From a virus (lineage: Duplodnaviria > Caudoviricetes): DNA of 57,458 nucleotides. This document shows positions 1-57,458 of this stretch, in pieces. The stretch lies in the IMG/VR virus record IMGVR_UViG_3300025418_000002, positions 1 to 57,458 of that record. One strand, written 5' to 3'. Numbering within the stretch: position 1 is the first letter of the stretch; each line of letters begins with the position of its first letter. Under the pieces are notes generated by a model, which was not told where the DNA came from, did no database searches, and saw nothing but the letters and a program-made list of their open reading frames with translations. The translations under genes and the position numbers were made by a program.

Positions 1-127
1 CAGGCATAGGACCAGGCATAGGACGGCGGCGAGGGATAACCCCAGGGGCGCCAATACCACCAGGCATCCTAGATACAGGAGGGGACCCAATAGGACCTCC
101 CATTGGCTGTCCAGTTATTGGATGAAA
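1..127. repeat. Terminal direct repeat, copy 1 (circularisation overlap)
   Basis: Bases 1-127 are identical to 57332-57458. 127 nt is a common assembler k-mer, and a reading frame runs in phase across the junction. Confidence 0.95.
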
Positions 128-1375
128 TCCTGTAGGTGTAACTCCACCACCCATTGGCGGCACTTGAGGCCCGCCCATTGGAGGACGCATTATTCCAGGG
201 CCGACACTTGGGGGTAATTGGCTAACTCCTGGAGGCATTGGCGCAGGAGCCGGACCAAAGGAGCCAGTAGGGACAGCGGAAGGAGCTGGCCCAAAAGATC
301 CAGTAGGAGTAGATCCAGGACCAGGCATAACGGCCACAGGAGGAGCCGCAACAGGCGCACCCATCATTGGGCCGCCGTTAAACTTACCTACACGGCCACC
401 ACTTTTAAACGGCATACCAGGAACACCACCTGGAGGAGGCGCACCAGGAGCCATCCCTGGGGGTGTTGGCGCAGGACCAGCAGCACCCATAGGCGGAGCC
501 GCAGGGGCGCCAACTGGTGCAGGCATGCCAGCACCCATTGGAATACCCATATCAGACAAAGGCTGATTACTTTTACTTGTTTCAATTTTTATGCTGATTT
601 CTGGGAAGTGTTTATTTTTACGGCCTTTACTTTTCTTTTCACCAGTTAATCCGCCGCCCCAAGCCTTGCCAAGGCGTCCAAGCGTCTCAGCCAACCGCGC
701 ACGTTTTCCTAACTTTCCGCCCTTTTCAGCCGCAGCATGAAGCTTCTTAGCTGGAATCTTCTCACCAGCAGGAACACCTAACTGCTTATGTAAGGCTCCC
801 TTATGCTTAATAGCTTTCTGAATCCACTTGCCGCCACCTTCAGCTTTGCCAGTAAGGGCTTCTTTCTTAACCATCTTCTTAATGAGGGATTTATCCTCAG
901 CAACATCAGGATGATCTGCCTTGCCGCCCTTCTTATAATGCTGGGCAGCGCCACGGACTGGCTTAATCTTTTCCGTTCCAATGCGGGCCTTATCCGTCTG
1001 CGTCTCTTTGTCAGATGGAACTTCGCCGCCATGCTTAAGGCCGCCAATGTGCTTCACGCCTTCGCGTGACTTATTGGCTTCCTTCATGTTCTTGTTGGCC
1101 ATGCCAACACCAATTTCTTTTTCTACAGCGCCGCCTGCCTTGCGGGCCTTTCTGTCAGCTCTGGCCTTGGAAGCTGCACCCGCAGCCTTACCAACAACCT
1201 TGCCACCCTTCTTATAATTCCGAGGGGAGATAGGACGCATGCCCGTCTTGGCTTCCGTATTCAACGGTTCAGCTGGGATCCAGTCTGAGCTATCTACCTT
1301 TTGATCCTTTTCGCCAGCAAGAGAACGGGCTTTCGCCTTCATCTTCTCGCGGGCCTCTTTGGCAATTTTATACAT
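1..1375 (-). CDS. 5' part of a 525-aa junction-spanning Lys/Gly/Pro-rich late protein with ~11 xxxGG motifs (joins 57331..57129)
   Basis: ATG at 1375 with GGAG upstream. Hand translation MYKIAKEAREKMKAKARSLAGEKDQKVDSSDWIPAEPLNTEAKTGMRPISPRNYKKGGKV... has no stop down to base 1 and is in frame with ORF 57129..57434 (1375+203=1578 nt). Confidence 0.9.
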   Translation of the reverse strand, partial: MYKIAKEAREKMKAKARSLAGEKDQKVDSSDWIPAEPLNTEAKTGMRPISPRNYKKGGKVVGKAAGAASKARADRKARKAGGAVEKEIGVGMANKNMKEANKSREGVKHIGGLKHGGEVPSDKETQTDKARIGTEKIKPVRGAAQHYKKGGKADHPDVAEDKSLIKKMVKKEALTGKAEGGGKWIQKAIKHKGALHKQLGVPAGEKIPAKKLHAAAEKGGKLGKRARLAETLGRLGKAWGGGLTGEKKSKGRKNKHFPEISIKIETSKSNQPLSDMGIPMGAGMPAPVGAPAAPPMGAAGPAPTPPGMAPGAPPPGGVPGMPFKSGGRVGKFNGGPMMGAPVAAPPVAVMPGPGSTPTGSFGPAPSAVPTGSFGPAPAPMPPGVSQLPPSVGPGIMRPPMGGPQVPPMGGGVTPTGFHPITGQPMGGPIGSPPVSRMPGGIGAPGVIPRRRPMPGPMP

Positions 1376-1485
1376 TTAAACTCTCCGGCCAGATTGTGGG
1401 GCGTCCCCCCTCCGCAAAAGCTTGCGGAAGCAAAGATAATATACTAGCGTAGATAATATTCATAGTGTTGATATGGGGGATTGAT

Positions 1486-1665
1486 ATGGAGCATTTCACT
1501 CAATATGACGCCGAGTGCCTTATAGAGTCTATCCACACAAAAATAGGCGAGCTTATTCTTGTTTTAGGGTTAGACCTAGAAAAAAATAAAGATGCAGAAA
1601 TCATTATTAACGAATTAAACATGCTTGTTGGTGACATTAAAGGTTATACCATTCCACCAACATAA
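1486..1665 (+). CDS. Small hypothetical protein, antisense to the late operon
   Basis: AT-rich ORF MEHFTQYDAE... with a G-rich RBS; overlaps the 3' end of the 675-aa gene. Confidence 0.45.
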   Translation: MEHFTQYDAECLIESIHTKIGELILVLGLDLEKNKDAEIIINELNMLVGDIKGYTIPPT

Positions 1666-3671
1666 TACCCCCATCCTTTTTTATTTTTTTCAAGATAGCT
1701 CATAATATTATCAAGCCATTCTTGGTCCGCCTTTTGAACAGGCGTCTGAGTCATTAACGCTTGCTGATACATTGTAGGCGTCATAGGGACCATTCTTCCT
1801 GATTTCTTTTCAAGATATTCTGGCTTTATGTTCTTATACCAATTTGGGAACATTAACCGAGCAGGAACTTGATGCTCAAATCCTCCAGCATATCCAATAT
1901 TTCCGGGTAACTGCCCCCCGTATGTTTCATGTATATGCTCTGGATCAACTAAAATTTTTCCCTTAGGGTCTAATCTTGATAAAGAATAACCACTTGCCAA
2001 ATGTTCCCCGCTTATAAGATTAGGGTCCATTGCAGCAACTCTAGCTGCTCCAACATCTGGGAACCCACCTTTTATCATAGTGGATCTATCTAGGGCTTTT
2101 GCAAATTCAGATGAAGCTGTTCCAGGGCGACTTGCTAGAAACTTTTCTGATTCTTTCCAATTTTCAAAACCTGGCCACTCACCAGCTTTGTCACTTACTT
2201 TTCCAGAAACAAAATCATTAAGCTTCTTTAATGCAGATGTATCAAGATTTAAGTTTGGAGCTTGCCTTAACAAACTTTGAGCAATCATATGGGAAGAATC
2301 CATACTAGGAATACCCATAAGAGTGTGGGCCATATAAACAGGAACATCTTCATCAGGTAATTGGGACTGTATTTTTTCTAACATTTGTTTGGCTGTTGCT
2401 GGGCGAGATGCCCAAGGAGAAGGAGCAAACCTAGACCTCTGATAATTACCTCCACCTTGAAGCAAAACAGGCTCCGCTAATGGAACGCCATTAATTTCAT
2501 GCAAAATCATTTCAGCTTCAGTTCTATCTCCTAAGGCAGGAGCAACATAGGCTCCCTCTTTATATAAATCCTCTGGGGTCAGAACTTTCTTAGGCCGCAA
2601 TAATCCTGTTGGAGTAGCCACATATTCAATTTCACTTAATGGTTTTCCAAAGTTCGAAACTTGCAATTCCGAAGAAAGATTCGGGTCTCGTGAAATAATA
2701 TCAGAAGCTTTGACAACTGAAGGCTTTAATCCTTTTACAATATTTAACGCCTTTGCTATTGGTCCAGCTTCAGCATCTTCTGGCATAAGAGCAGCGGCGC
2801 CAACCGCAGCCGCCTTCGCAGCCTTTCCTGGAAGACCAAGAGCTGATAACGCAGCAGTAGTTGGGTCCCCCTCACGCAATCCAACCGCAACATCTCTTGC
2901 CGCAGCAATAGGAGCAGCCGGCGTAAAGTAAGGAGCTATCTCTGAAGCAGCTTGGAGGGCTGGCTGAATAACGTCAGTAGTTCCCTTTGGATATGTGCCA
3001 AGAGGAAGACGCGAATGTGTTAAAGGTTCCTCAATTGACATAGGCGCAAATTCAACCGCGCCGCTTACACCTTTATGGTGCGTAGCGCCTTCCCGCGCAG
3101 CAACTTCATTGGCTGTTTTAATAGCAGCCTCAATGTCGTCAGGAGTCCCGCCGCCTTGCATAACCTGTCTTCCAACTTCAGGAAGGTAATGTGTCGGAAA
3201 CCCATCCTCTAATACTGGCCCACCATCCGCCCGCTTCAAAACAGGCGCAGCAGCAAAGCTCCAGGCAATCAACCGACGAAAGAAAGCGCCGGAATCATCA
3301 TCACCTAAATCATGCTGATAAGGAATGCCGCCGCCAAGAGCTCTTTCGTCTCTGCCATCATCATCAGTATGGCGAAAATCCATGACAGGAACCTCTTTAA
3401 TTCCTAGCTCTTTTGACGCCTCAGCTCTGTGTCTGCCGTCTTGGATATTGTCTTTATACAGCTTCAAAGGACCAATATGATGACCATGCTTAATATGCTT
3501 CTTGAAGCCACGGATAATGGACCTATCCCCTTCATCCATTTCCATCTCTTGAGTCTCTCCAAGAAACTCGCCCGGAGAAATATTTTTCAGCTTTGCTTTT
3601 CCAGCCTTCAACTCAAGCTTGGCTTCCTTTGGCATGGCTAATGGATATTTAAGTTTCTTCTTAGCCATCAT
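1644..3671 (-). CDS. 675-aa multidomain late protein with an N-terminal ParB/Srx-like domain and xxxGG-delimited segments
   Basis: IGPLKLYKDNIQDGRHRAEASKELGIKEVPV is ParB-like (DGxHR). Contains RALGGG, RADGGPV, MQGGG and a terminal YYVGGMV. Start overlaps the portal stop. Confidence 0.7.
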   Translation of the reverse strand: MMAKKKLKYPLAMPKEAKLELKAGKAKLKNISPGEFLGETQEMEMDEGDRSIIRGFKKHIKHGHHIGPLKLYKDNIQDGRHRAEASKELGIKEVPVMDFRHTDDDGRDERALGGGIPYQHDLGDDDSGAFFRRLIAWSFAAAPVLKRADGGPVLEDGFPTHYLPEVGRQVMQGGGTPDDIEAAIKTANEVAAREGATHHKGVSGAVEFAPMSIEEPLTHSRLPLGTYPKGTTDVIQPALQAASEIAPYFTPAAPIAAARDVAVGLREGDPTTAALSALGLPGKAAKAAAVGAAALMPEDAEAGPIAKALNIVKGLKPSVVKASDIISRDPNLSSELQVSNFGKPLSEIEYVATPTGLLRPKKVLTPEDLYKEGAYVAPALGDRTEAEMILHEINGVPLAEPVLLQGGGNYQRSRFAPSPWASRPATAKQMLEKIQSQLPDEDVPVYMAHTLMGIPSMDSSHMIAQSLLRQAPNLNLDTSALKKLNDFVSGKVSDKAGEWPGFENWKESEKFLASRPGTASSEFAKALDRSTMIKGGFPDVGAARVAAMDPNLISGEHLASGYSLSRLDPKGKILVDPEHIHETYGGQLPGNIGYAGGFEHQVPARLMFPNWYKNIKPEYLEKKSGRMVPMTPTMYQQALMTQTPVQKADQEWLDNIMSYLEKNKKGWGYYVGGMV

Positions 3672-6037
3672 TCACCTGTATTGATTATAGGTAATGGAGC
3701 CTCTTGGCTTTCCAGCCTTTGAAGCATGCCAGGCTCAATAATGCTTTGGATAATAGGAAGCGACGTAGGATTGGCCGCAATATCCTCAGCCAACTTTACA
3801 GCCGCCAGTCTTTCACGGCTTTCCCTATCCCGCTGACGGTTTATGGCGTCAAACTGACTGTCCATAACCTTATGTTGCAACTCCTCACGCTGTTGCTGCA
3901 ACTCCATTTGCTTCTCTTGCAACTCAGCCTGCTTCATTTGAACTTCCATCAACTGAGCAGGGTCAGGCTGTTGATTTGGATTGTTTTGGCTTTGAGCCTT
4001 AATCTGGACCTCAGCAGCCTTAGACTGTGCATCCATTGTCCTAGCGTCAGCCTCTTGCTTCTGAATCTTCAACTGCTCTTGAGCCAGTTGAACCTCAGGC
4101 GGCGTCTGAGGCTGACCCGCCGTAGCAGCCATAAACTGCTCAGGGTTGCTCCAGCCAATGGCTTTCATTGCAACCATGTCAATCTTAATTGGGTCATACA
4201 TACCAGGGTTGCCTTGCTGCAATTGCTTCAAAGCCATTACCTTCATTAGTCGCTGTGTTTGACTAGCTGTGTTTGGATCAGCCTGCGGAACCAACTCATA
4301 ATTGTCCAGGGCCTCAATAAACAGCTGATAGTTCCAAGGTGCAGATGGAGACTTCATACGCTTCCAAAAGCTTTCAGGATGCTCCCTAAAGCAACGCACC
4401 AACAACTGAAACTCTTCAGCCTGTGACGCATGCATGCGCTTGTGAACGGAATTAAGAATCTTTGTAGCCTGGTCAATCATTGCCAGCGTTGTGCCAACAG
4501 GCGCATCTTGGCGCCCTTCACCAACTTGCAACTCACTTGTTGAGCCAACACGCTGGCCAGTCTCAACCATGTTGCTAACCAAATTCATCATAGCCTGCCC
4601 AGGCTCTTTGTAGGGCAATGGCATAATGGCTTGGCTAATTGGCATTCCGCCAGTTTTTACTAAAGCGCCCCCACCTGGAGGAACACGGAAGATATTTGTA
4701 TTTTGGCGGGCACCAGTATCTGCCATGAGGAAGCCCGGAAAATTTGCATACATTCCGGCGTCTAACATTTCTCGCCATGCAGCCGTCACCGCATTAGTAG
4801 TGTTGCCAAGGATGTGAAGTAAACCAATGTCGTAAAAGCCCATACCGGGGACGAAAGAATATTTAACAAAGTTGTTTCGCGCTTCAGGTAATTCATCACC
4901 TTCCTCGCCCGTCGGTTCATCATAGTTTCTTACAATGGAGAGTATTTCCCTAGAGGATACATCAATAGTTACTCTGTAGGGAATCTCTAATCCTGTCTCT
5001 TTTCCTTTATATTTGTGCTCATGTCCCCTTATGTTTAATTCGCAATAAATTTCATAAATTTCTCTATCTCTGTCTTCAGGATTTCTTGTATCAATAGAAA
5101 TGCCTTGCTGATCCGCCTTTTGGCGTTGAACCGCATCCGGCTGATCCATTGACGGAACTGTTAAATCAATGTCTCGGTAAACGCCTAAAATCTGCAAACG
5201 CTTAACAGTAGACTGACGCATGAAAACACGGTGAGTAGTGCGCTTGGCGTTACTCAAATCCGTCGCAGCATTATTAACAATCAAGTCATCAGCGTCTACC
5301 GTCTCAGAAACTGGACGGCCTCGAAGTGGGCAGAAGTAAACTTTCTTAAATGATGTCCCCCCAAACCCAAGCATAAATAGCATTCTGTCTGTGTCTGGGT
5401 AATACTCACGCGCGACAGCCGTAAGATAATGGTTGAGGTCTTTTTCAAGAGCATCCGCCAATCCATCTTCCTGCATGGTGGCCATATAGTCGTCGTTACG
5501 AATTTTAACTGGACCATCCGTCGGAAGAAGCTCACTTCTTGCATTAGCTTGGAAGCGAAGAACAGATTCAAGAAGAAGCGGATGTCTTACCTTGCTCATA
5601 CCCTCAACAGGGGCACCGTCCGCTGCGCCCTGTATTCCAGGGATTTCTATCTTAAGGCCAAGAAGCTTAATGCCTTGCGCCCTGTCTTCAATCCATTCAT
5701 TGCGGCTGTCTAAGTCATCTCTAACGCCGCGAAGCAGGTCTTCGGCAATTCTGCCTAACTCCATGCTATCAATATCTTCAACAAGATTGCCAAACCACTC
5801 AGCGGATTTATCAGCCTCAGACTCTTTGCCAAGACCATTTCCGTCCAAGGATATGCTGACTGACCCGTCACCGTGTTCAATCTTTATGATGTTGCCAGAG
5901 TCGTCTACTTCTTGCCTGTCATCATTATCTTCAAGGATTTCAACTAAAATATCTTCAGCTGCGCCGAGGCCTTGGGGCTCCTGGCCCTCTACTTGCCGGA
6001 TGGCTGGATTGAGGCCGGGAGTCATACCCATAATCAA
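3668..6037 (-). CDS. Portal protein (P22-like, with Gln-rich C-terminal barrel)
   Basis: 789 aa, downstream of TerL. HPLLLESVLRFQANARSELLP, GTSFKKVY, PGMGFYDIGLLHILG and APVGTTLA motifs; coiled-coil Q-rich tail. Confidence 0.9.
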   Translation of the reverse strand: MIMGMTPGLNPAIRQVEGQEPQGLGAAEDILVEILEDNDDRQEVDDSGNIIKIEHGDGSVSISLDGNGLGKESEADKSAEWFGNLVEDIDSMELGRIAEDLLRGVRDDLDSRNEWIEDRAQGIKLLGLKIEIPGIQGAADGAPVEGMSKVRHPLLLESVLRFQANARSELLPTDGPVKIRNDDYMATMQEDGLADALEKDLNHYLTAVAREYYPDTDRMLFMLGFGGTSFKKVYFCPLRGRPVSETVDADDLIVNNAATDLSNAKRTTHRVFMRQSTVKRLQILGVYRDIDLTVPSMDQPDAVQRQKADQQGISIDTRNPEDRDREIYEIYCELNIRGHEHKYKGKETGLEIPYRVTIDVSSREILSIVRNYDEPTGEEGDELPEARNNFVKYSFVPGMGFYDIGLLHILGNTTNAVTAAWREMLDAGMYANFPGFLMADTGARQNTNIFRVPPGGGALVKTGGMPISQAIMPLPYKEPGQAMMNLVSNMVETGQRVGSTSELQVGEGRQDAPVGTTLAMIDQATKILNSVHKRMHASQAEEFQLLVRCFREHPESFWKRMKSPSAPWNYQLFIEALDNYELVPQADPNTASQTQRLMKVMALKQLQQGNPGMYDPIKIDMVAMKAIGWSNPEQFMAATAGQPQTPPEVQLAQEQLKIQKQEADARTMDAQSKAAEVQIKAQSQNNPNQQPDPAQLMEVQMKQAELQEKQMELQQQREELQHKVMDSQFDAINRQRDRESRERLAAVKLAEDIAANPTSLPIIQSIIEPGMLQRLESQEAPLPIINTGE

Positions 6038-26559: not shown

Positions 26560-29262
26560 TCAGATATGGTTGTTTGCTACTTTAAGTGCGCTGACAACAT
26601 TTTCATCAGGCTCCTCAAGCAAAGACTTTGTTTCTGACTGTATTTGCTTCTTAGCATTTTCAGCCATTTTAATAAGTTTTTCAGCCGTCATTGCGGCGCC
26701 AGTTCTTCCGCCTGTTGCTCTTTTTGTTCTGTCTTTAGAAAAAGCAGTTTGCTCTAAAAATGCAGGATAAGCAATTTTAGGAATAGTCCTACCTAAAGAA
26801 TTAGCAGTGCCCTCAATGGCTCCACTTAAAGAAGAAAATGCCTCAGGAGATGGCTTTCTTAACAATTTAGCCATTAATGCTGGATCACGCATGGCTTGCT
26901 GTAAAAGCTGCATAGCGGCATCTTGAGTTGTGCCATACAGGAAAGTATTGAAACTCGAAACAACAGGGGCCGTTAATTTACTGCCAACACCTAGCACTCT
27001 TGCAGCAGCAGCCCCAAAAGGAGCTCCCGAAGCAGCCGCAGAAACATTCTCAGCAATATGGCCAAGGACAGCCGCCGCCGCCACATCAGAAATGGCGCCA
27101 GTGGCCCTGCCGTAAATAATTGACATGATATTATTGTTAGCCAGCTTATCTAGCGTCTTTGTTCCAGCTACTTTTCCAGCAGGAAGTTTTGAGACGACTT
27201 TTGCCGAACGGTGCAACGCATCAAGATAGGCCTGAAGGTTTGTATTATTTCCAGCAATTCTACTCAATTCATGACTGTGTTGATCCATGAATTGAGCTAA
27301 AGCCTTAGGATTATTTCTATTGGCTATTGATTGGAAGTTTTCAGTTAGCTGCCGCATCCTTGCGGCCTCAGCTGATTCACCCGCTCTTTGAGCAATATTA
27401 GAAATTCTCTCCCGTAAACCAGGAACCTCATTAACAAGGGCTGCGGTTTTAGGGTCAGACAAAAACTTAGTTACATCTTTAGGCGTAACATTAATGTTGG
27501 TGCCGTTTTTAGTTAATTTGCCAATAAGCCAGTTTGAGGCCGCTTCATCAACATTAACGCCTGGAAGGTCCCTAATTTGCCGTAAATTTTGAACAGCGTT
27601 AGGACCAGAAAACATCCTGTCAAATGTTGCTTCGCCAGCAATTTTAGCCCCGCCACCTTGAAGGTCAGAAACCAAATCACTGACAAATTTAGGGCCAAAA
27701 GTTGAATGGTAGTCAGCAGTTGCAGCTCTAGCGTTATTCCAAGCAGACCTTTGGCCAATATTCCTAAAATCAAAAATAACATTATCTTCATTATTTATAA
27801 TTTCTGCTAATTTTGCCCCTAACTCATTATTTACAAACTGTCCAAAATTATCTCCCTTTCTACCAGCTTCCCTTCCGGCAGATAAAACCTGGGACCGTAA
27901 ATCTTGAACATGGGAGAGTGGTATATTCCCCGTTTCCATTCCCCTAATCTGGTCCATAACATCAATAACATTTTTTGGTATCATCTGCATACGTGAAGGG
28001 GAAAGTTCATCTAAGTAACTGTCAATAGTATTTATTACCTTGTTTCTTTCCAGGGCGGCCCCCTTTAAGCTTGGATTATCCCACGCATTTTTTACAGCCC
28101 TGTCTTTTTCTTCTTCAAGAGCCTCAACAACACTTTTAACATGTCTTGCCGCTTCGCCTTGAGGATTAAAGCCTGTTGGAAGCCCAACAGCGGCCTCCAT
28201 ATCAACAGAAGGTATTTCACCAGCAACTCTTTGGGGAGCCCTAGCAGCGGCGGCGGATGTAGATTGCTCAGAAAGAGCTTCTTGAGCCTTTCTTAACGCA
28301 AGCTCAGTGTCAGACTCTTTTTGTCCTGCTCTTTCAAAAATATTCTCAAGACCTTTAGCCTCACCACCACCAAGAACCTGCGCAGTTGTTGGCTCAACGC
28401 CTGGAATATATCTGTCTGTTGGCGCAAGCTCCCTTGCCGCAACTTCACCCTCTAACCTTGTCGCCGCCTTTTCTGGTTCAGCAAAAGCCTCTCTTGCAAC
28501 TTGGCCAGCAATCTTTTCAGCTCTTGCTTGAACAGCCGGGGCACTTCGTGCTTCCATAGCCGCCGCACCAGCTGTTCCAGCTAAGGCACCAGGAAGGGCG
28601 CCAATTAATCTTGCCGCTGTCTCGTAGTCAGTGCCTTTTGTAGCCTGGCCAGCAGCCTCTGATGTTAACCCAGATAAGGCTCCAGTTGTCATGCGCTGAC
28701 CAAGAGTTCCCGGTCCAGCTAAAGATGCTCCCGCAAACTCACCCGCAGTCTGTCCAAACTTGCCAGGAATTGTTTTTGCTTCATAAGAGGGCATGCCAGC
28801 ACGTTTTGCTGTTTCTACTACGCCTCTTCCCGTTATTACGGGGACGCCCAAAATACTGGTCACTTCGCCGCGTTTTTCAGCTTCCGACCTTGGCGCAACT
28901 TCCTCACCAAGTTTTTTGCCAGCTTCAATAAATTGTTCAGCCGTTTTACCTTGCGGAAGAAGACCAGCCTTTTCCGCAAGTTTAACTGCCCCGTAAGTGG
29001 CCTTTTCAGCCCCAAGATCATAGAGCTGGCCAAGAGAGCCAATAATACCAGGGGTTGAAACAACGCCAGTTGCTAATCCTGAAGCGGTTCCTTTAGCAAC
29101 ATCCTCAGCAATACCAGGCTTGCCTTCATGAACCACAGGAGGAGGCGCATATTCTTTTGGCATTGGCGCAAAGGTCATTGCCGGCGCGCGTTCTTCCTTC
29201 TTCTCTTCTTTGCGAAGATGTGGAGGTGCGTAGTCTTCTGGCATTGACTCAAAGTCATCCAT
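26560..29262 (-). CDS. Large internal (ejection) virion protein
   Basis: 900 aa, Ala/Gly-rich helical, in the typical podovirus ejection-gene position; RATGGR near the C-terminus. Confidence 0.7.
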   Translation of the reverse strand: MDDFESMPEDYAPPHLRKEEKKEERAPAMTFAPMPKEYAPPPVVHEGKPGIAEDVAKGTASGLATGVVSTPGIIGSLGQLYDLGAEKATYGAVKLAEKAGLLPQGKTAEQFIEAGKKLGEEVAPRSEAEKRGEVTSILGVPVITGRGVVETAKRAGMPSYEAKTIPGKFGQTAGEFAGASLAGPGTLGQRMTTGALSGLTSEAAGQATKGTDYETAARLIGALPGALAGTAGAAAMEARSAPAVQARAEKIAGQVAREAFAEPEKAATRLEGEVAARELAPTDRYIPGVEPTTAQVLGGGEAKGLENIFERAGQKESDTELALRKAQEALSEQSTSAAAARAPQRVAGEIPSVDMEAAVGLPTGFNPQGEAARHVKSVVEALEEEKDRAVKNAWDNPSLKGAALERNKVINTIDSYLDELSPSRMQMIPKNVIDVMDQIRGMETGNIPLSHVQDLRSQVLSAGREAGRKGDNFGQFVNNELGAKLAEIINNEDNVIFDFRNIGQRSAWNNARAATADYHSTFGPKFVSDLVSDLQGGGAKIAGEATFDRMFSGPNAVQNLRQIRDLPGVNVDEAASNWLIGKLTKNGTNINVTPKDVTKFLSDPKTAALVNEVPGLRERISNIAQRAGESAEAARMRQLTENFQSIANRNNPKALAQFMDQHSHELSRIAGNNTNLQAYLDALHRSAKVVSKLPAGKVAGTKTLDKLANNNIMSIIYGRATGAISDVAAAAVLGHIAENVSAAASGAPFGAAAARVLGVGSKLTAPVVSSFNTFLYGTTQDAAMQLLQQAMRDPALMAKLLRKPSPEAFSSLSGAIEGTANSLGRTIPKIAYPAFLEQTAFSKDRTKRATGGRTGAAMTAEKLIKMAENAKKQIQSETKSLLEEPDENVVSALKVANNHI

Positions 29263-29266: not shown

Positions 29267-32200
29267 TTAGCGCCCCATTAACTTGTCAGTTATGCCATTA
29301 CCAAAGTTCTTATCAATATATTCTCTTACAGTTTGACCATTTGAATATTTCCCATTTGGACCAAACTTCCTAAGGTCTTCAATTGCTCTTGGATTAACTG
29401 TCGAGAGAATAGCCCTATCAGCATATTTTTGCGGCGGGTTTAACTCTCTAAACGCATTTTCTGCGCCTTTAATTGTTTGGTATTTTGCCGCATATTTTTC
29501 CATGAAAGTAAGTTTGTCTTGCTCATATTTTGCAGCTTCTTTTAATCCAGCCGTAATACGCTGGAATCCAAGTTGGGTATTTTCCATGCCTGGATTTGCC
29601 GCAATAGAACGCTCAACAATAAATCCTGGCTCATGTCCAAGACCTTGCGCAGTAGCAAATCCTAGTCGCGTTGTATCTTTTGCTAACGTCTCTGCCGCAG
29701 CTACGTTGCTTGGGTCAAAGAGAGGCTTGCCGCCAATCATGGCGACAATGCCATTGATGTCTTTTGCAATTTGAGTCCGTTGCGCAGCATAAGGACCCCA
29801 CTCCAACCATCCCTCACTAGGAATGTTTTTGGATTGGTTTTCCATTTCATCAATGCGGTAAAGTTGATTGTAAGAAGCGTTTGCAAGCGCCCTTTGCTTA
29901 TCAACCTCTGTCTTTGATGACTCTATTTCCTTTTCCAATGCCCCAGGCGTCATTGCAATATTGTAAGCGCCTGTAGGGGGTTGCATTGTGGATGGGATGT
30001 CTGTTGTTGCTTTCCAATTAGCTGCGGAGCCAATTTGATCTTTGCCAATTGGCTTCACCTCTGTTGGTGGAGCCTCTATTGGTTTTTCTCCACCAACTGC
30101 TGTTGGAACTTCATTTGGGTGAGGAGCATTAGAAAGCGGCCTACCTTCAACATCAGAAATTGGCGTTGGGATTTGATTTGGATCATCCTTACGGTTGATG
30201 GTCCAACCAACATTTGGAATCCATTTTTTCTCATAGAGCTCACTAAGAGCTTTTTTAGTTTCAGCTTCCACAAACTTTTGTTCAGCGCCAAGCTTGCCAG
30301 TTCGGGCTCCAACCTCACCTGTTTCAGCACGAGTTTTAGCGGCTTCTTCAGCAGTTTTAAGAGCCTCTTGTCCAATTTTCTTAGTTTCAGCAGAAATTTT
30401 TGGAACTTCCATATAAGAAGCTGCGCCTGCTCCAAGTCCTTTTAATAAAGCGGGAGCAAAGAAGCGGCTTTTAGACTCAGACATTGCACCTAAGCCAGAA
30501 AGCAATGGAACAATAAACCGTTCACTGGTTAAAAAGTCTAATGCCTTCTCCCCTACACCTTCAGGGGCTGTTCCTCTAAGGAATCCAGAAATGCCTTCAC
30601 CTTGTTGCGGTGCTTCAGTTGCAGAAGATGGTGGGGAAATACCAGCCCCCTTGACTGTTGTAGCCATCATGCTGAGCTGTTCCGGCGTCATTTCGCTTAA
30701 ATCAGGCATACCTGCGCCAGCAAGGCCTAAGGCCTTAGGAACATAATCACGGGTCTCTTGCGGAAGAAGAGACATTACATCTCCACCTGGGCCAGCCTTA
30801 TCCAAGGCTTTCTGAACACGCCCAGGGCCAGCATTGTAAGCGGCTAAAGCTAATTCAGGAGTTCCAAATCTTTTTAACTGAGCATCATAGTAAGCTTTAC
30901 CGAGGGCCTTGTTATAGCCTTCATCACTACGAACCCGCTCTGGGTCATATTCTAAGCCAGCAAGTTTAGCAGCCTCCGGGGCGGTTGAAGGCATAATTTG
31001 AGCAATGCCTTCCGCACCTTTAGGAGACGTTAGAACACGACCCTTCTTATCAAATTGGCTACGGCCTGACTCGGCTCCTAACAAACCTTTTTCAAATATA
31101 TCATCATCTGAAACATCATCATCAGGGCCACCATCTTTATATGCGGCGCGAGGAACTGAACCGCCGTCTTTTAGAAGCAATAATGGACCAAGAGCAGCAA
31201 GACCCTCACCAATGCTACTTAACAGTCCACTTCCGGCAGAAGCAGCAGACCCAAGGCCAGCCATCAAGGAATCACCAAGACCGGCACTTGTGGCGCCAGC
31301 CGCCCCACTATCCCCTATAACGCCGGGAATGCTAAACATTCCCTGTCCAAGATTTGCGCTTTTAGCGGCGTCTGAAGCAAGGCCAGAAAGCTTGCCACCA
31401 GTAAGTGAGTCAAGTCCCTTTAATTCACCAAGCGCAGACTTGCCCTGACCATATAAATCAGAAAGAGCACTTAGGCCGGACTTCCCTGAGCTTGTTGGTG
31501 ATGAAAATGGCAGTGGAGACATAGCAGCCATAGTAGGAACATTAGAAGCCTTTGTTGGCTTGATATTCAAATAACCAATGCCGCCATAAAGACCTTCTGA
31601 TGGATCATATTGACTTGATTGACCAGTCCCACCATCAGCAAAGCCACCTCGTGCATAATCACCTGATCCCGTTACACCACCACCAAGTCTTTCTTCAGAA
31701 CCATTAATTGCGCCACCTGATGCAGCCAACGTAGTCCCAAAAAATGAAAGTGGAACTTGTTGGGTTTGTGACCCATATTGATTTGTGCTTTGAGTTTGCC
31801 CGTATAATGGTCCAAGCTGAGAAGCAATATTTGCAGCATATTGGCCAACCTGAAATGGGAAAGCCTGAGACATAAGATATTGGTTGTAAAGTGCTTGCAA
31901 CCCTGCTTGAGCCGTCTGCTGTTCAGTCCCACCTGCACCCATAAGAGCCTGGGCAGCTTGAATTTGAGCTGTTTGTGCGCCAGCACCCAACCCACCCATA
32001 AGTTGTGCGGCTTGAAGCTTTCTAGTTAAATCAGCTTGCTGTTGCGTCTGTTGCTGCTCATAAGCTTGGCGACCTAATGTTCCAATATTGGCATATTGAT
32101 CACCAGCCTGAAGAAGACGCGAAAGGTCTGCCTGCTGAAGCTGACCAGCCGTAGAACCAAATTGACCCATAGCCTGGCTGGCAGCCAATTGACGCGCACG

Positions 32201-32950
32201 GTCTGCTTGGCTGGCTTGCTGAGACTGAAATGCAGCGTTAAGGGCCTGCCCATAGCCTTGCTGCATAATGTCGCCGTAAGTCTTGCCGCTAGACATTTCT
32301 TGCTGCGCAGCCAACGTAGCAGCGGCAATACCTGCCCTATCTCCACCAAAAGCCCCTTGCTGAATAGCCTGACCAGTTTGGCCAGCCATTGCCTGCTCTT
32401 GCTGTTGCTTTAAGAAGGCCATTGTCGGGTCAGCGACATCCTTCAAATATGGAGACATAAAACTCTGGATCTGCTGCTGACCAACAGGAGTGGTTAATTG
32501 AGATGCTTGTTGAGCAAGACCAAAACCAGAAGTTAGATACGGATTGGCAGCTTGATACCCCCCAGGGGCTGTGGCGGCCTGTTGTGTATATTGTGCCGCT
32601 GTGTTGTAATATGGCTGAGACTTTTCAGCTATATTAAAATCAGATACATTTTGACCACCAGCTCCTGCCGCCATCCCTAGCGCCGCTTGGTAGGCCGGCT
32701 GTGCTGTGTTTTGCGCCTGTCTAAGGTCCCATATTGACTGTAATTGATCTTGATTAAGCTGCGCCACAAAAGACGAAGGGTCTGAACTATATGGCTGAAA
32801 CTGCCTGTAGGCAGCCGACATAGCTATAGATCCAGCAGGATTGTAATAACCCTCTGCGACACCAGGAAGTGCAGTAACAGTCTGGTTTCCACCTTGAGTA
32901 GTATTTTGAATAGTTGGAGCAGAATTGGACGAAGAACCAAAATTACACAT
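29267..32950 (-). CDS. Large ejection protein with an SLT lytic transglycosylase domain
   Basis: Q/A/G-rich N-terminus; AESG...SPKGAEGIAQIMPSTA...ALAAYNAGPGRV...ETRDYV; several xxxGG motifs precede the enzyme domain. Confidence 0.85.
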   Translation of the reverse strand: MCNFGSSSNSAPTIQNTTQGGNQTVTALPGVAEGYYNPAGSIAMSAAYRQFQPYSSDPSSFVAQLNQDQLQSIWDLRQAQNTAQPAYQAALGMAAGAGGQNVSDFNIAEKSQPYYNTAAQYTQQAATAPGGYQAANPYLTSGFGLAQQASQLTTPVGQQQIQSFMSPYLKDVADPTMAFLKQQQEQAMAGQTGQAIQQGAFGGDRAGIAAATLAAQQEMSSGKTYGDIMQQGYGQALNAAFQSQQASQADRARQLAASQAMGQFGSTAGQLQQADLSRLLQAGDQYANIGTLGRQAYEQQQTQQQADLTRKLQAAQLMGGLGAGAQTAQIQAAQALMGAGGTEQQTAQAGLQALYNQYLMSQAFPFQVGQYAANIASQLGPLYGQTQSTNQYGSQTQQVPLSFFGTTLAASGGAINGSEERLGGGVTGSGDYARGGFADGGTGQSSQYDPSEGLYGGIGYLNIKPTKASNVPTMAAMSPLPFSSPTSSGKSGLSALSDLYGQGKSALGELKGLDSLTGGKLSGLASDAAKSANLGQGMFSIPGVIGDSGAAGATSAGLGDSLMAGLGSAASAGSGLLSSIGEGLAALGPLLLLKDGGSVPRAAYKDGGPDDDVSDDDIFEKGLLGAESGRSQFDKKGRVLTSPKGAEGIAQIMPSTAPEAAKLAGLEYDPERVRSDEGYNKALGKAYYDAQLKRFGTPELALAAYNAGPGRVQKALDKAGPGGDVMSLLPQETRDYVPKALGLAGAGMPDLSEMTPEQLSMMATTVKGAGISPPSSATEAPQQGEGISGFLRGTAPEGVGEKALDFLTSERFIVPLLSGLGAMSESKSRFFAPALLKGLGAGAASYMEVPKISAETKKIGQEALKTAEEAAKTRAETGEVGARTGKLGAEQKFVEAETKKALSELYEKKWIPNVGWTINRKDDPNQIPTPISDVEGRPLSNAPHPNEVPTAVGGEKPIEAPPTEVKPIGKDQIGSAANWKATTDIPSTMQPPTGAYNIAMTPGALEKEIESSKTEVDKQRALANASYNQLYRIDEMENQSKNIPSEGWLEWGPYAAQRTQIAKDINGIVAMIGGKPLFDPSNVAAAETLAKDTTRLGFATAQGLGHEPGFIVERSIAANPGMENTQLGFQRITAGLKEAAKYEQDKLTFMEKYAAKYQTIKGAENAFRELNPPQKYADRAILSTVNPRAIEDLRKFGPNGKYSNGQTVREYIDKNFGNGITDKLMGR

Positions 32951-33487: not shown

Positions 33488-33994
33488 TTAGTCCCGTTTA
33501 GGCCCCGGCAAATTTTTTAATGTCTCAACAGTTTTCGCCCTATATTTTTTTATCAAATCATCAAAAATACGGTGCCCTTGTTCTAGGATACCTTGACCTA
33601 CTCTTTTTACAGTGGAAGGGGACAAGACATATTCACCACCAGCCGCAATGATCTCAGTTGCTGGTTCAGGACCTAAAATTTGGCGCCCAAACATTTTGTT
33701 CAAAATCCTAAACCCAGCCATTGTATTACCTTCCCCCAAAGCAGAAACAATGTCTGCGGGAATGACATAAGCACCAGAAGGAACATGCATAGGAAGATGG
33801 TCAGTGCGGCCAGCAACAGGGCTATGAATAGGACCAACAAATGTTTTTGCTTCTGAAGCGCCACCTTCGGCATAAGATTGAAATGCCTCCTTTAATGAAG
33901 CGGCAACTGCCTGTTTATGCGGATGACCCGAACTAATCATCTCAGATATATTATATGAAATTGTTTTTGGGGATTTTCCCTTTTTAAGAGGCAT
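33488..33994 (-). CDS. Basic N-terminal module, YAEGG, then a tandem 'GEYV' domain (candidate processing factor)
   Basis: MPLKKGKSPKTISYNISEM..SG.P.KQAVA; GPIHSPVAGRTDHLP; repeats SGAYVIPADIVSALGEG....G.RI and GGEYVLSPSTVKRVGQG....G.RI. Confidence 0.75.
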   Translation of the reverse strand: MPLKKGKSPKTISYNISEMISSGHPHKQAVAASLKEAFQSYAEGGASEAKTFVGPIHSPVAGRTDHLPMHVPSGAYVIPADIVSALGEGNTMAGFRILNKMFGRQILGPEPATEIIAAGGEYVLSPSTVKRVGQGILEQGHRIFDDLIKKYRAKTVETLKNLPGPKRD

Positions 33995-34004
33995 AGTTAA
34001 ATCC

Positions 34005-34370
34005 TTAGTTTGTCGTATAACAGACAACTACTGTCTGGCCTGAACCTGGGCTGATAACGAGCCCACTAGAAAAATTAAATCCTATTTCAAAAATTCCAAC
34101 CGTAGCTGGTATTATAACAATTTGGTTGTCTGATATGGCTCCGCTCGGAGAAATGGCATTATATATTGTTCCAGCCGACCCAGAAACTAAAACAGATATT
34201 CTGACAATATAACCACTTCCTGTATAAAGAAGTGTTGTTGATCCTGATATTGGAGCAGATGTAACTTGTCCGCGTGTTTTATTGACGTAATCTTGCCAAG
34301 ACTTATTAAGGTTATTAAGGGCAATAACGCCATTTTTTTGTGTTGTAAGAATGTCGTCTAGAGTAGCCAC
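34005..34370 (-). CDS. Hypothetical structural protein
   Basis: Small beta-rich ORF coupled to the upstream stop. Confidence 0.7.
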   Translation of the reverse strand: MATLDDILTTQKNGVIALNNLNKSWQDYVNKTRGQVTSAPISGSTTLLYTGSGYIVRISVLVSGSAGTIYNAISPSGAISDNQIVIIPATVGIFEIGFNFSSGLVISPGSGQTVVVCYTTN

Positions 34371-52251: not shown

Positions 52252-52316
52252 TTTATCCTCGCAATATATAGGCGGCGGGGCTTTGGACACCCCGCCGAAG
52301 CACCTACTAATTTAAA

Positions 52317-52526
52317 TTAGTAATGTGAAGCCTTGCCGCGAGGTGTTCCAGCTTTAGCTGAAGAGAAAACACCACCACCCGTTGCACGGGCTGGCTTTTT
52401 ACCTTTATGAGCAGCAGACATTACTTTGCCACCCTTCTTAGCGCATCCACCCTTTTTAAAGGTTTCAGTCTTGTTTGCAGCTTCACTAGCAACATTAGAG
52501 TCACCACCTGCGTAATATTTACCCAT
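52317..52526 (-). CDS. 69-aa basic protein made largely of xxxGG motifs
   Basis: YYAGG, FKKGG, AKKGGKV, RATGGGV; GGAG RBS. Confidence 0.8.
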   Translation of the reverse strand: MGKYYAGGDSNVASEAANKTETFKKGGCAKKGGKVMSAAHKGKKPARATGGGVFSSAKAGTPRGKASHY

Positions 52527-53139: not shown

Positions 53140-54054
53140 TTACGACGTTGGGAATGAACCCCAAATTGAACGCCAGTTGTAATAGCCGAAGCTATAACGC
53201 TCGTAGCCTTTAACCAAAAGGTTGTCGGTTACGAAATCTACCTGCATGTCCGTCTCGAACTTAACGCGCTCCATGTAGGAAAGGCCGTCAATGTTAGTGA
53301 GAAGGAACCAAGCATAAGCAGAGGTCAAGAAGTCATTGACCATGTAACCTTCGGGAAGGCCCCCGGCAGTCATCATGATTGCGTTGACATCATTGTCTGC
53401 TGTGCCTGGGCGCAGTTCCGTCTTTGTAAGACGAATTGCAACAGGCTCAAGCTGTGGCGGAACAACAAGACGACGGCCACGGGCAAATACCTTCAGGCCA
53501 GCTTGGTCTTTGAAGTTCGTGCGGATGCTAATCATAGCATTCAGCAACGTAGCTTCATTGAGGTCAACTGGAACTGTCGGCAGATTTGAAACCGTGCCAC
53601 CATCAATAGGATGGTCAGACGCACAAAGCGCCTTACCGTCACCACCAACGGAAGCATTATACGTCGTCGCCGTGTTCAACACGTTGGCGCCGTAAATTTC
53701 CTTCGTCTGCTGGAACGACTCAATCAGGCCAAGGTTTGACGGCATGAACTGTGTTTTATACAGATTGTCGTCAACTGCTTTGCGCGTAATGGCGTAACCC
53801 AGAGCAATTTCAGTGTGCTCTTGGTTGTAGACATAACGCTCACCAGCTGAGTTGTCGAAAGCAGTCTGGCCGCCTTCAGTTTTCAGCTGCGCAAGACCCA
53901 AGAAACGCATTTCTGCGGTGCGCTCAAGCGCCATCTTGGAATCATGCTTGGTGAAGATTTTGTCGTATTGAGATGGGATCATCTCATACTTGCCTTCAAC
54001 TCCGCGCAAGCCGGGGAGCAGAAGGTCTTTTATGGCAGAGAGATTAACAGCCAT
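53140..54054 (-). CDS. Major capsid protein
   Basis: 304 aa; LLPGL, K.EG....D, YNQEH.EIALGYAITR.AV.DNLY, ANVLN, GDGKAL...HP, LVVP..L, TADNDVN, YERYSFG..NWR...GS. Confidence 0.92.
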   Translation of the reverse strand: MAVNLSAIKDLLLPGLRGVEGKYEMIPSQYDKIFTKHDSKMALERTAEMRFLGLAQLKTEGGQTAFDNSAGERYVYNQEHTEIALGYAITRKAVDDNLYKTQFMPSNLGLIESFQQTKEIYGANVLNTATTYNASVGGDGKALCASDHPIDGGTVSNLPTVPVDLNEATLLNAMISIRTNFKDQAGLKVFARGRRLVVPPQLEPVAIRLTKTELRPGTADNDVNAIMMTAGGLPEGYMVNDFLTSAYAWFLLTNIDGLSYMERVKFETDMQVDFVTDNLLVKGYERYSFGYYNWRSIWGSFPTS

Positions 54055-54755: not shown

Positions 54756-54778
54756 CTAAGCCTTTAAGACTTAATAAC

Positions 54779-54808: not shown

Positions 54809-54830
54809 GGGGCGGTTAATTGCCGCCCCT
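54801..54830 (-). terminator. Intrinsic terminator
   Basis: AGGGGCGG-N7-CCGCCCCT followed by TTACTTTT on the minus strand. Confidence 0.75.
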
Positions 54831-54836
54831 ATTATC

Positions 54837-55460: not shown

Positions 55461-55471
55461 GATTTTAATCC

Positions 55472-56416
55472 TTAATGTCCAAGCTTGCCTTCTTTTTGAA
55501 GCGCAACCATCTGTTTAGCGTAATCAGATTCAGTCATTCCCATCATTTTTGCCATGTCGGCTTGCTCACGCGAAAGACGCACGACATTCGGCCTCTGGCC
55601 CCCACGAGAAACAGGAGCCGGAGGTGGTTGTGGGGTTCTTTTAGGCGCAGCTGCACTAGAAAGAGGGCTTTCTGGTGTGGCTTCATTTTGTGGAGACTCA
55701 TAACGACGACTGGGAGTCAGACGACTTTCAATGAACTTAAAATATTCATCTGAGTCTGGCCTAATACCATCATCTATTGCGTCCTCATGCGCCCTGAACA
55801 TCTTTCTTACGTCTGTTTCAGAACGAATAAGACTTCTGTTTTGATGTAGCCACATGGCAGACTTAGGAGAAGAAGGCGCAACAGAAGAAATAAGCTGATC
55901 TACAACGTCCCCATGCTGAACAGGCTGTTGTTGCTGTTGAGAAGATGCGTCTTCCGCATCTTTCAACTGCTTTTTCATAGCTTTTTTGCCTTCTTTCAGC
56001 TTTTCAAGCTGATTTTCATTCGTAACCATGGCGTTATTGATTTCAGCGGCCTTTGCATGGTCGCCAACATTTAACGCCTCAGCATAAGCATTCTGCAAAG
56101 CTTGAGAACGCCCCTTTAATGTATCAATGGCGTTAGAAACCATTTGATATTGGGCTTCAATTGTCTCATCTTTGGCCTTTTGAGCATTAAGTTGAGCCTC
56201 TCTTGCGCGTCTTTCAGCCTCAACTCGCGCTAATTGCTCAATTTCAAGCTTGCGCTTGAGCTCATTAATGCCTTCTTCTGGTGCAATTTCAGAAGATTTC
56301 TCTACCTTTTCAGGTTTTGCCGAAGCTTCGTCTACAATTTCAACTTCTGGCTCATTTTCAGGCATTTTTTTATCATCTTCCAGCGTCACTTCGACGACTT
56401 CAGGATCATCACTCAT
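55472..56416 (-). CDS. Capsid scaffolding protein
   Basis: Acidic N-terminus, long coiled coil, W...N, SDEYF, C-terminal V.LS.EQ..MAK.MG....YAK. Confidence 0.75.
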   Translation of the reverse strand: MSDDPEVVEVTLEDDKKMPENEPEVEIVDEASAKPEKVEKSSEIAPEEGINELKRKLEIEQLARVEAERRAREAQLNAQKAKDETIEAQYQMVSNAIDTLKGRSQALQNAYAEALNVGDHAKAAEINNAMVTNENQLEKLKEGKKAMKKQLKDAEDASSQQQQQPVQHGDVVDQLISSVAPSSPKSAMWLHQNRSLIRSETDVRKMFRAHEDAIDDGIRPDSDEYFKFIESRLTPSRRYESPQNEATPESPLSSAAAPKRTPQPPPAPVSRGGQRPNVVRLSREQADMAKMMGMTESDYAKQMVALQKEGKLGH

Positions 56417-56427
56417 TTAAATACTCC

Positions 56428-56820
56428 TTACCAAGCTACGTCTGGAGACGGCACACGCATTTTTATTTGCGTGTCCGACAACATTCGGCACAAAACACCA
56501 TTTATAGTGACGCCCCAGCCGTCAGATGGCCGAAATACAACCCAATCATGAAGATTGAGGGTGGCATTATCAAACCATTCACCCGTATCATCTTGGAAGG
56601 CAGACGGACCCATACCGACAATCAGGCCAATTTTGCCCTGATACCTGTCTTCGTCCGTATACTTGTCTGTTAAATACAGACCGCTCTTAGTTTTATTGGG
56701 CCTGATATAAACACAGCAGAGCACTTGGTTGTTAAAAATCTCAATATTGGATAAATCACCTAATTCACCTAGTAACTTCTGCTTAGGGTCAACGTCGTGA
56801 TCCATAAGCATATTAACCAT
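56428..56820 (-). CDS. groES: Phage-encoded GroES/Cpn10 co-chaperonin
   Basis: VLC....NKTKSGLYL.D, G.IV.MGP.AF.D..G.W, DWVVF, ING...R...D..I. Confidence 0.85.
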   Translation of the reverse strand: MVNMLMDHDVDPKQKLLGELGDLSNIEIFNNQVLCCVYIRPNKTKSGLYLTDKYTDEDRYQGKIGLIVGMGPSAFQDDTGEWFDNATLNLHDWVVFRPSDGWGVTINGVLCRMLSDTQIKMRVPSPDVAW

Positions 56821-56837
56821 TATTTTCCCCTTCTTCG

Positions 56838-57044
56838 TTAGAGAACCTTCTCTCTGTATACCCGGTCTGCTTCAGCCAGATATTCCTTCGTCTGGGCAAG
56901 ACCAGCAATCTTGCCCGCTGCATATTTGTATTCAGGATAGTCGTGACGGCCTAAAGCCATATTTTCCATAAGACGTTCAATCTCAGTATCAATAAGGTCT
57001 TCTAGTAAATGCACGTAAACGTGCAACGGCGTAAGTGTTCCCAT
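56838..57044 (-). CDS. Small helical head-module protein
   Basis: G..DY.EYK...G.I.GL, upstream of groES. Confidence 0.75.
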   Translation of the reverse strand: MGTLTPLHVYVHLLEDLIDTEIERLMENMALGRHDYPEYKYAAGKIAGLAQTKEYLAEADRVYREKVL

Positions 57045-57128
57045 ATCCAGCTTCCTCTCTGGCCTTCCTCTATGTAAGTGGGGCTGGCTTCTTGAGGAAG
57101 GGGGAAGTAGCCAGCCCCGTCGCAGTAA

Positions 57129-57458
57129 TTACTTACCGCGAACCTTTCCTCCAGACTTGCGCGCAGGAGCATCCTTGCGCAGCTTGGCAATATCAGTTTT
57201 CTGCAAACGGCCTTCACCACTTGCTGCGCCGGCTTCCATGTCTTTGTATGACTTGGCTACCTTCGTAATTCTACCACCTGATTTACGCATTAAAGGAACT
57301 CCAGTTATAGGTCCGCCAACAGGTCCAGGAGCAGGCATAGGACCAGGCATAGGACGGCGGCGAGGGATAACCCCAGGGGCGCCAATACCACCAGGCATCC
57401 TAGATACAGGAGGGGACCCAATAGGACCTCCCATTGGCTGTCCAGTTATTGGATGAAA
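57129..57458 (-). CDS. 3' part of the 525-aa junction-spanning xxxGG protein
   Basis: In frame with 1375..1; ends MRKSGGRI...GAASGEGRLQK...ARKSGGKVRGK*. Confidence 0.9.
   Translation of the reverse strand, partial: FHPITGQPMGGPIGSPPVSRMPGGIGAPGVIPRRRPMPGPMPAPGPVGGPITGVPLMRKSGGRITKVAKSYKDMEAGAASGEGRLQKTDIAKLRKDAPARKSGGKVRGK
57332..57458. repeat. Terminal direct repeat, copy 2
   Basis: Identical to 1-127. Confidence 0.95.

Follow-up and report, generated by a model that had tools for sequence, protein, structure and literature searches.

A recurrent Gly-Gly motif in predicted internal and ejected proteins of a podophage-like virus is more suggestive of a docking tag than of a cleavage site

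The virus record IMGVR_UViG_3300025418_000002 (Duplodnaviria; Caudoviricetes), whose entire 57,458 nucleotides are hereafter called the window, encodes several late proteins in which a short motif centred on two glycines recurs. An initial annotation of the window had described this motif as genome-wide, as common to six late proteins and as either an address or a cutting site. All the motif strings that it quoted are present in the translated open reading frames (ORFs), and the motif has the consensus [R/Y/K/L/F/H]-[K/A]-x-G-G-[K/R/x]-[V/I/A/T]. The two ends of the window share 127 bp (positions 1-127 are identical to 57332-57458); the assembly is therefore circular, the true genome measures 57,331 bp and one gene spans the junction. 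This junction ORF is real: it runs on the minus strand from 1375 to 1, joined to 57331 to 57129, and encodes 525 amino acids (aa). The genes that bear the motif, and their close neighbours in the argument, are the following:

1..1375, minus strand: N-terminal 458 aa of the 525-aa junction protein
57129..57458, minus strand: C-terminal part of the junction protein (57332-57458 repeat 1-127)
1644..3671, minus strand: 675-aa cargo ORF with a ParB-like N-terminus
52317..52526, minus strand: 69-aa very basic protein, downstream of the capsid gene
51982-52290: DUF6321 small basic protein
33488..34027, minus strand: 179-aa protein (probably 168 aa from the second Met)
32974-33474, minus strand: 166-aa protein of the ejection block
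29267..32950, minus strand: 1227-aa predicted internal or ejection protein
26560..29262, minus strand: 900-aa predicted internal or ejection protein

The motif is far more frequent in the late proteins than their composition predicts. Indeed, the regular expression [FYRKAL][AK].GG.[VI] gave 12 matches in the 44 late proteins against 0.71 ± 0.84 expected, a number reached by none of 2000 within-protein shuffles, and 0 matches in the 37 early proteins against 0.14 expected, so that the enrichment over a composition-matched null is borne out. Pairs of glycines (GG) as such are depleted in the late proteins (113 observed vs 168 expected), and the enrichment is therefore not an effect of glycine richness. 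Six of the matches lie in the junction ORF and two each in the 675-aa, 1227-aa and 69-aa proteins; when the junction ORF is left out, six matches remain against 0.56 expected (0 of 1000 shuffles reached six), and shuffling inside 40-residue windows led to the same outcome for these six. As the expression had been fitted to the data, the residues around every GG were also examined. In the junction ORF and in eight cargo, ejection and small basic proteins there is an excess of F/Y/R/L at position -3, of A/K at -2 and of V/I at +2. Both the -3 and the -2 flanks occur at 10 of the 38 GG sites of these eight proteins, a grouping chosen after inspection of the data, but at 0 of the 43 GG sites of the remaining 35 late proteins (portal, terminase, capsid and fibre proteins) and at 0 of the 17 early ones. 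The motif is thus not clustered in replication proteins, portal or major capsid protein, as had been remarked by eye, and the term genome-wide was an overstatement, the motif being confined to about six to eight proteins predicted to be internal or ejected. It is truly common to, and conserved among, the proteins that the phage appears to carry inside its head.

An unbiased search of the late proteins for exact gapped words, a method unsuited to degenerate motifs, returned the R-N-K-Y-T-Y-A-C-D repeat of a 307-aa protein and not the GG motif. The copies of the motif differ in their codons, so that conservation is at the protein level; a DNA-level recombination box at module junctions was excluded for the same reason.

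It could be argued that the motif is a by-product of Gly/Lys-rich low complexity and of repeats in one protein. Half of the strict matches in the window are indeed located in one repetitive protein, the expression was post hoc, the 166-aa protein holds a look-alike in a GNAT-like region and, of the instances originally listed, KFNGGPM, KAEGGG and AASGGAI are not clearly conserved. Such a chance origin is nevertheless extremely improbable and largely refuted: the enrichment survives both removal of the junction ORF and local-composition shuffles, GG is depleted overall, in hundreds of divergent homologues it is the GG columns that stay invariant, and unrelated cargo proteins share the motif at their ends.

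The junction protein is basic (net charge +55 for the whole protein) and is assembled from short conserved modules that follow one another and all end in x-K-x-G-G. Seven copies of the motif start at aa 54, 78, 113, 147, 177, 237 and 323 of its N-terminal 458 aa. In the family the N-terminus is conserved and ends in the first copy, and a conserved C-terminal unit, R-K-x-G-G-R-[IT]...S-Y-K-D-M-[DE]-A-G-A-x-S-G-E-G-R-L-[QE]-K, is sometimes duplicated. The copies that mark these two regions are:

1196..1216, minus strand: first junction copy, YKKGGKV, aa 54-60 (G57 near-invariant and G58 invariant in 45 homologues)
57267..57287, minus strand: junction copy RKSGGRI, aa 474-480, opening the conserved C-terminal unit (G477 and G478 invariant)

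According to AlphaFold2, run with the alignment of 45 homologues, the junction protein is mostly disordered, with a mean predicted local distance difference test score (pLDDT) of 52.4 and 285 of the 525 residues below 50, and all nine motif copies lie inside or touch segments of pLDDT <50. Mean column identity in the alignment is 18%, and the invariant columns are mostly motif glycines (G58, G116/G117, G240/G241 and G477/G478), with G57, G81/G82, G150/G151 and G180/G181 near-invariant. Short linear motifs usually betray themselves by such conserved islands within disorder.

A search with the capsid gene returned about 600 IMG/VR contigs with a near-identical capsid gene, of which the best 80, ranked by capsid similarity, were fetched. 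Syntenic junction homologues are 283-1001 aa long and about 30-48% identical, and carry many copies of the motif. Among the best 120 of 1,617 database relatives, all 120 have at least six copies (median 10, maximum 17), against 1.04 in shuffled sequences; in most flanks an R or K stands at -3, a K at -2 and a K or R at +1. In clades whose capsid-cluster representatives are 48-59% identical, proteins of 58-269 aa keep one to four copies together with the C-terminal unit. One junction module (KWIQKAIK...) forms an 88-aa gene of its own in Pelagibacter phage HTVC027P. In this phage (L081:22472-24783, plus strand) about ten small basic genes follow the portal, at the place of the junction gene, and another of them encodes a DUF6321 protein like that of the window. 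The first 458 aa of the junction protein matched no Pfam family even at E up to 5, except for a chance-level match to Fusello_VP2 (E 0.045), and the ESM Atlas yielded unnamed viral clusters only, the weak leads being DUF6321/DUF6496 and crassvirus cargo protein 1 (scores 0.75-0.77).

The ejection-type block comprises 864-aa, 179-aa, 166-aa, 1227-aa (with an SLT domain) and 900-aa proteins, and was compared with four related contigs (47-61 kb, estimated to be 81-100% complete). In brief, (i) the 900-aa protein has a conserved C-terminal tail in which RATGGRT (aa 848) is followed by a helix and then by ...VVSALKVANNHI at the end, and R-[AK]-x-G-G-R is found about 50 aa from the end in four of four relatives, followed by the helix and a terminal ...A-L-x-[IV]-A...; (ii) the 1227-aa protein carries YARGG and FADGG at aa 432 and 437, and LKDGG and YKDGG at aa 593 and 604, copies that are partly kept, Y-A-x-G-G being found in three of four relatives and the second pair in some form in all four but with GG in only two or three; (iii) the 179-aa protein carries YAEGG in a variable-length linker that joins its N-terminal helical hairpin to a conserved core, and its family keeps A-x-G-G, with the GG invariant in 34 of 34 aligned homologues. 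The 179-aa family has 2,545 database relatives and matches no curated family; its strongly conserved core contains invariant His, Ser, Asp, Glu and Asn residues and resembles either some kind of enzyme or a module for tight interaction. The motifs had been said to fall at domain junctions, and indeed those at aa 593 and 604 of the 1227-aa protein precede its SLT transglycosylase domain (aa 641-720), and two in the 675-aa protein, at aa 110 and 147, follow its ParB-like match (aa 50-102; phrog_1033, E 5e-4). Conservation of position in homologues is seen for the junction, 900-aa, 179-aa and 69-aa proteins.

Two side observations concern this block. Peptidase_S74 is a self-cleaving intramolecular chaperone; in two of four relatives examined, the SLT-bearing homologues L099:1236-6419 (minus strand) and L104:607-4395 (plus strand) gave a Pfam match to a Peptidase_S74 segment at about aa 283-434 (E 1e-5 and 9e-9, respectively), a third relative, G003, has the same S-D-x-R-x-K insertion with no Pfam match, and the 1227-aa protein of the window is without the insertion. 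Furthermore, the 166-aa protein, 49-58% identical in four of four relatives, gave a weak GNAT match (Acetyltransf_7, E 0.005, under the Pfam cut-off); a putative virion-borne acetyltransferase beside Lys-x-Gly-Gly motifs would be suggestive.

The 69-aa protein carries YYAGG, FKKGG, AKKGGKV and RATGGGV, the first of which starts at residue 4; FK[KR]GG is kept in 23 of 23 homologues and a second copy, R-x-x-GG-x-V, in 17 of 23. It has no Pfam match, and neither it nor the first 458 aa of the junction protein matched a curated model of the Pfam KGG stress-protein family or of another named Gly-rich repeat. Small basic proteins after the capsid gene keep two to five copies in the clades with 48-59% capsid-cluster identity. 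The most basic late proteins of the window are a 56-aa protein, the junction protein, the DUF6321 protein and the 69-aa protein (isoelectric points 10.2-10.5), among which are the two richest in motifs. Together with the R/K flanks and the predicted disorder, this would suit a polycationic DNA-binding hinge, that is, a flexible basic turn which, like a histone tail or an AT-hook, would neutralise packaged DNA and need no protein receptor. Such a function is nonetheless quite unlikely. The copies in cargo and ejection proteins are often acidic or neutral (K-D-G-G-S-V, Y-A-E-G-G) with an aromatic residue at -3, which argues for specific recognition rather than charge; the strict invariance of both glycines and the V/I/A/T at +2 exceed what a charge patch needs; and the terminal position of the motif on enzymatic cargo would be left unexplained.

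The enzymatic cargo is encoded between the portal and the junction gene, where the ORFs vary widely among relatives (130-1729 aa) and include ART-PolyVal (E 2e-25), PBECR5, LPD23 and DUF7178 domains, as well as ART-PolyVal and PBECR5 combined. Thirty-nine distinct ORFs from this interval were compared with 332 control ORFs from the same loci. A GG lies inside the last 45 residues of 35/39 cargo ORFs vs 60/332 controls, the 5-mer of the initial annotation inside the last 45 residues of 20/39 vs 5/332, and a GG followed by a helix start of the form [AS][LFM]xx[VILMA] in 21/39 vs 12/332, this helix pattern having been defined after inspection. The terminal helix is amphipathic and of the type [IV]-x-x-A-L-x-[VIL]-[VILM]-S. 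Both tail forms are seen in the cargo proteins of the uncultured spring phage MW202675, whose 739-aa cargo ends three residues after the GG. The 675-aa protein of the window likewise ends in YYVGGMV, two residues after the GG, where its aligned homologues continue into the terminal helix; no helix-coding frame was found downstream of its gene in any frame. An A-rich run precedes its stop codon and the +1 frame reads another K-K-D-G-G string and then a stop, and about 268 nt of apparently non-coding DNA follow the gene (window 1376-1700, minus strand).

These multidomain proteins, which carry polyvalent domains and are encoded among virion genes beside the portal, belong with the polyvalent proteins, described in passages of Iyer et al. 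2017 (PMC5512222) as virion-delivered multidomain effectors encoded beside portal or MuF genes and delivered by autoprocessing through peptidase domains or by MuF or portal fusions. The ParB-like protein of the window and the ART-PolyVal, PBECR5 and LPD23 cargos of its relatives are of the same class. The words 'glycine' and 'linker' have 0 occurrences in PMC5512222 and a shared C-terminal tag is not described in its available passages.

The following genes bear on whether the motif is cut and on what might bind it:

3668-6037, minus strand: portal, an alternative candidate receptor, with the cargo genes directly downstream
55472..56416, minus strand: 314-aa coiled-coil, scaffold-like protein, a further putative alternative receptor
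53140..54054, minus strand: major capsid protein, 304 aa, HK97-type by PHROG match, the putative receptor
25244-26551: S74 fibre (Peptidase_S74 match)

No protease family was matched in Pfam scans of 51 and 26 ORFs or in PHROGs scans of 51 ORFs, with the sole exception of the self-cleaving module of the S74 fibre, and relaxed Pfam and NCBIfam scans of the head and ejection proteins of unknown function found none. Genes for prohead proteases of the HK97 (U35/S78), lambda C (S49) and T4 gp21 (S80) types were absent from the Pfam, PHROGs and NCBIfam results, so that the earlier statement that none is recognisable stands as far as these databases can see. The match of the capsid gene to phrog_4523 ('major head and protease protein') is limited to profile positions 440-639 of 644. 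The phage thus lies outside the protease-based maturation families, because their defining protease was sought and not found. Among the remaining candidates, the 314-aa protein, a coiled coil whose C-terminus is conserved, appears scaffold-like, and the 207-aa protein has no invariant Ser or Cys. Suspicion had also fallen on the 179-aa protein, which was not upheld: despite the invariant His, Ser and Asp there is no support from its fold, although it may yet prove to be an enzyme of new fold. Its AlphaFold2 model (pLDDT 70.7) had no Foldseek match in the PDB at E <= 0.001, its best VIA-align score against 48,161 chains was Z 4.8 and covered the N-terminal helices only, and a profile search against PDB sequences gave no match at E <= 1.

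In spite of this, maturation cleavage at or next to the GG has points in its favour. An unrecognised phage protease, a host protease or self-cleavage would free the cargo from its anchor helix and break the junction protein down into short basic peptides that remain associated with the DNA. The junction modules all end at the GG and one of them is a gene of its own in HTVC027P, and in the cargo and 900-aa tails the GG stands just upstream of the terminal helix, as in an anchor with a release site. The adenovirus protease, S273R of African swine fever virus and the C39 (double-glycine) peptidases cleave next to Gly-Gly, the viral enzymes in precursors of virion proteins, and adenovirus makes small basic DNA-bound peptides in this way. 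Here, no such peptidase was detected, the flanks differ and there is no N-terminal leader layout; indeed, C39 gave no Pfam match and the motifs are internal or C-terminal instead of ending an N-terminal leader. The strings FATGG and YATGG that had been cited from lambda gpH are real (about aa 733-737, with the GG at 736, and about aa 778-782, with the GG at 781). The glycine-rich C-terminal region of lambda gpH, where these strings occur, is trimmed by about 14 kDa, the precise site and the catalyst being given as unknown in PMC12617516, and T5 pb2 is cut as well. In lambda gpH [FY]-A-x-G-G thus occurs twice, in a disordered region just upstream of the C-terminal segment that docks in the tail tip, but gpH is the tail protein of a siphophage and not head cargo, and the analogy comes without a mechanism.

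Cleavage is on balance unlikely. Besides the negative protease scans, the head module, with its separate coiled-coil scaffold and its 304-aa capsid protein, would be like those of protease-free podophages. The residues on both sides of the GG are conserved, and several motifs lie only two to six residues from a terminus, namely those of the 675-aa protein (GG two residues from the end), the MW202675 739-aa cargo (three), the junction protein (about five to six) and the 69-aa protein (residue 4), so that cutting would achieve nothing there. Of the two options first proposed, the cut therefore gained no support, whereas the address fits with the C-termini of unrelated cargo, the conserved islands in disorder and the restriction to predicted internal proteins.

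A docking tag thus accounts for the motif better than a cutting site does, and its reading as an address for internal and ejected proteins is given a probability of roughly 45%. It is a real short linear motif, and it lies in disordered parts of proteins that would be packed in the capsid: the polybasic junction protein, the small basic proteins encoded next to the capsid gene, the C-terminal tails of the polyvalent cargo, and the 900-aa, 1227-aa and 179-aa ejection proteins. Each copy would bind to one procapsid component that serves them all as receptor (the capsid protein on its inner face, the scaffold or the portal), and the motif-bearing protein, alone or with its terminal amphipathic helix, would be taken into the head. 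In favour of this, the motif recurs near the C-termini of cargo proteins that are otherwise unrelated, and both flanks of the GG are conserved. The capsid protein is 92-94% identical in relatives, as compared with 63-76% for the portal, 44-75% for the terminase, 36-51% for the scaffold-like protein, 33-51% for the junction protein and 29-45% for the ejection proteins, and this conservation makes it an attractive common partner for the motif.

Several points weigh against this address. The identity of the receptor is a guess, and the placing of the bearers inside the virion derives from gene position and from family names (an SLT-bearing internal protein, polyvalent proteins). The argument from capsid conservation is biased, the contigs having been ranked by capsid similarity, although the gap is still unusually large; moreover, motif-rich small proteins also occur beside capsids whose cluster representatives are only 48-59% identical. 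Both the motif and the tail expressions were shaped on these data. Up to 17 tags in one protein would be odd for simple cargo loading, the modular build of the junction protein suits a polyprotein, and the basic flanks would also suit DNA binding.

A further possibility is that the bearers are instead marked for exit, their tails serving as ejection (translocation) leaders of proteins that thread the portal and the tail channel and are pre-inserted there. All bearers would be expected to leave via the tail, lambda gpH carries the same [FY]-A-x-G-G string nearby, and C-terminal helices of the tape measure proteins of T5, 80alpha and lambda dock in the tail tip. The multi-copy junction protein and the N-terminal and internal copies do not fit a single leader, and such a role appears very unlikely, although sequence alone cannot separate it from an address.

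Known targeting systems offer partial parallels to the address. Encapsulin cargo-loading peptides are short, Gly-containing, disordered C-terminal tags on unrelated cargo enzymes, which are enclosed in a shell of HK97 fold. A short C-terminal tag common to unrelated cargo is also what was found here (35/39 vs 60/332), but unlike encapsulin tags the motif has many internal copies in one polybasic protein, is frequently accompanied by a terminal helix and differs in sequence, and the carrier would be a DNA-filled phage head with portal and scaffold. The capsid targeting sequence of T4 is an N-terminal signal of about 10 residues which is removed by gp21; the propeptides of the giant phages SPN3US and phiKZ are similar, and in both cases a dedicated prohead protease cuts at Glu-containing sites. 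The HK97 protease has a C-terminal targeting tail. In T4 and the giant phages, as proposed here, internal and ejected proteins reach the prohead by means of a short signal, but the present motif differs in being mostly C-terminal or internal, in being based on Gly-Gly and in having no detectable protease gene beside it.

An extended form of the address is somewhat unlikely. The motif would be a portable multivalent tag, for which the hyper-conserved capsid protein of HK97 fold (or else the scaffold) would offer a single pocket that captures all bearers; a tail of about 20-45 residues would load interchangeable anti-host effectors, and the disordered polybasic protein with its 6-17 tags would tether shell, cargo and DNA. 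Mimicry of the GroES mobile loop, considered with regard to the GroES-like gene of the head module, was rejected, as the hydrophobic triplet that follows the GG in that loop is replaced by K/R here.

To our knowledge, how podophages without a T4-like core select the proteins of their heads is poorly understood. In this abundant freshwater lineage, one conserved short motif recurs on exchangeable polyvalent effectors, ejection proteins and a polybasic protein that has many copies of it. It may be a variant of the known capsid-targeting signals, and no description of the motif or of the junction family was found in the literature searched, supplementary files aside. If the address holds, it would explain the free exchange of effector cargo and provide a simple tag; in its portable form it would parallel, in a phage, the cargo loading of encapsulins and could be used as it is to bring foreign proteins into phage heads. 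A cutting site would imply a protease yet to be discovered, which might also be the one responsible for the unexplained cleavage of lambda gpH.

The rest of the genome has, according to Pfam and PHROGs family scans, a podophage-like map that lies nearly all on the minus strand. The head module also encodes 207-aa and 199-aa proteins, and an SU10-type adaptor, collagen-like and S74 fibres and a GH19 endolysin are encoded as well. The early genes span 9.6-25.2 kb and include a PrimPol-helicase, RuvC, GapR, GcrA and a DnaA C-terminal domain. The further features are:

6263-7900: large terminase
9135-9653: small terminase
9856-10161, minus strand: GapR (E 5e-33)
22188-22511, plus strand: DnaA C-terminal helix-turn-helix domain (E 2e-14)
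24605-25024, plus strand: GcrA (E 5e-15)
56428-56820, minus strand: GroES-like gene of the head module (phrog_3188, E 5e-8; Pfam Cpn10, E 0.001, just under the cut-off)

The nearest named records by portal are MW202675 (68%) and phages of Pelagibacter, Roseobacter and Caulobacter (29-34%). No cultured close relative was found, and megablast of 20 kb matched no phage record. In tblastn searches, the junction protein matched MW202675 only, the 900-aa protein matched nothing, and a 45-aa cargo tail gave only chance-level matches (E >= 0.1). The order of the head module is the same in Caulobacter phage RW, including GroES and scaffold, and the GroES-like gene is kept in all relatives examined, among them RW and HTVC027P. 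RW has no junction gene and no motif; the system is thus confined to one lineage. The GapR and GcrA genes presumably point to an alphaproteobacterial host; the GcrA-like protein itself contains V-K-K-G-G-R-V. Finally, the 307-aa protein (43607-44530, minus strand) has T-R-N-K-Y-T-[YF]-A-[CS] at the centre of six repeats that are spaced at about 45 aa, and is probably a repetitive fibre or tail component.

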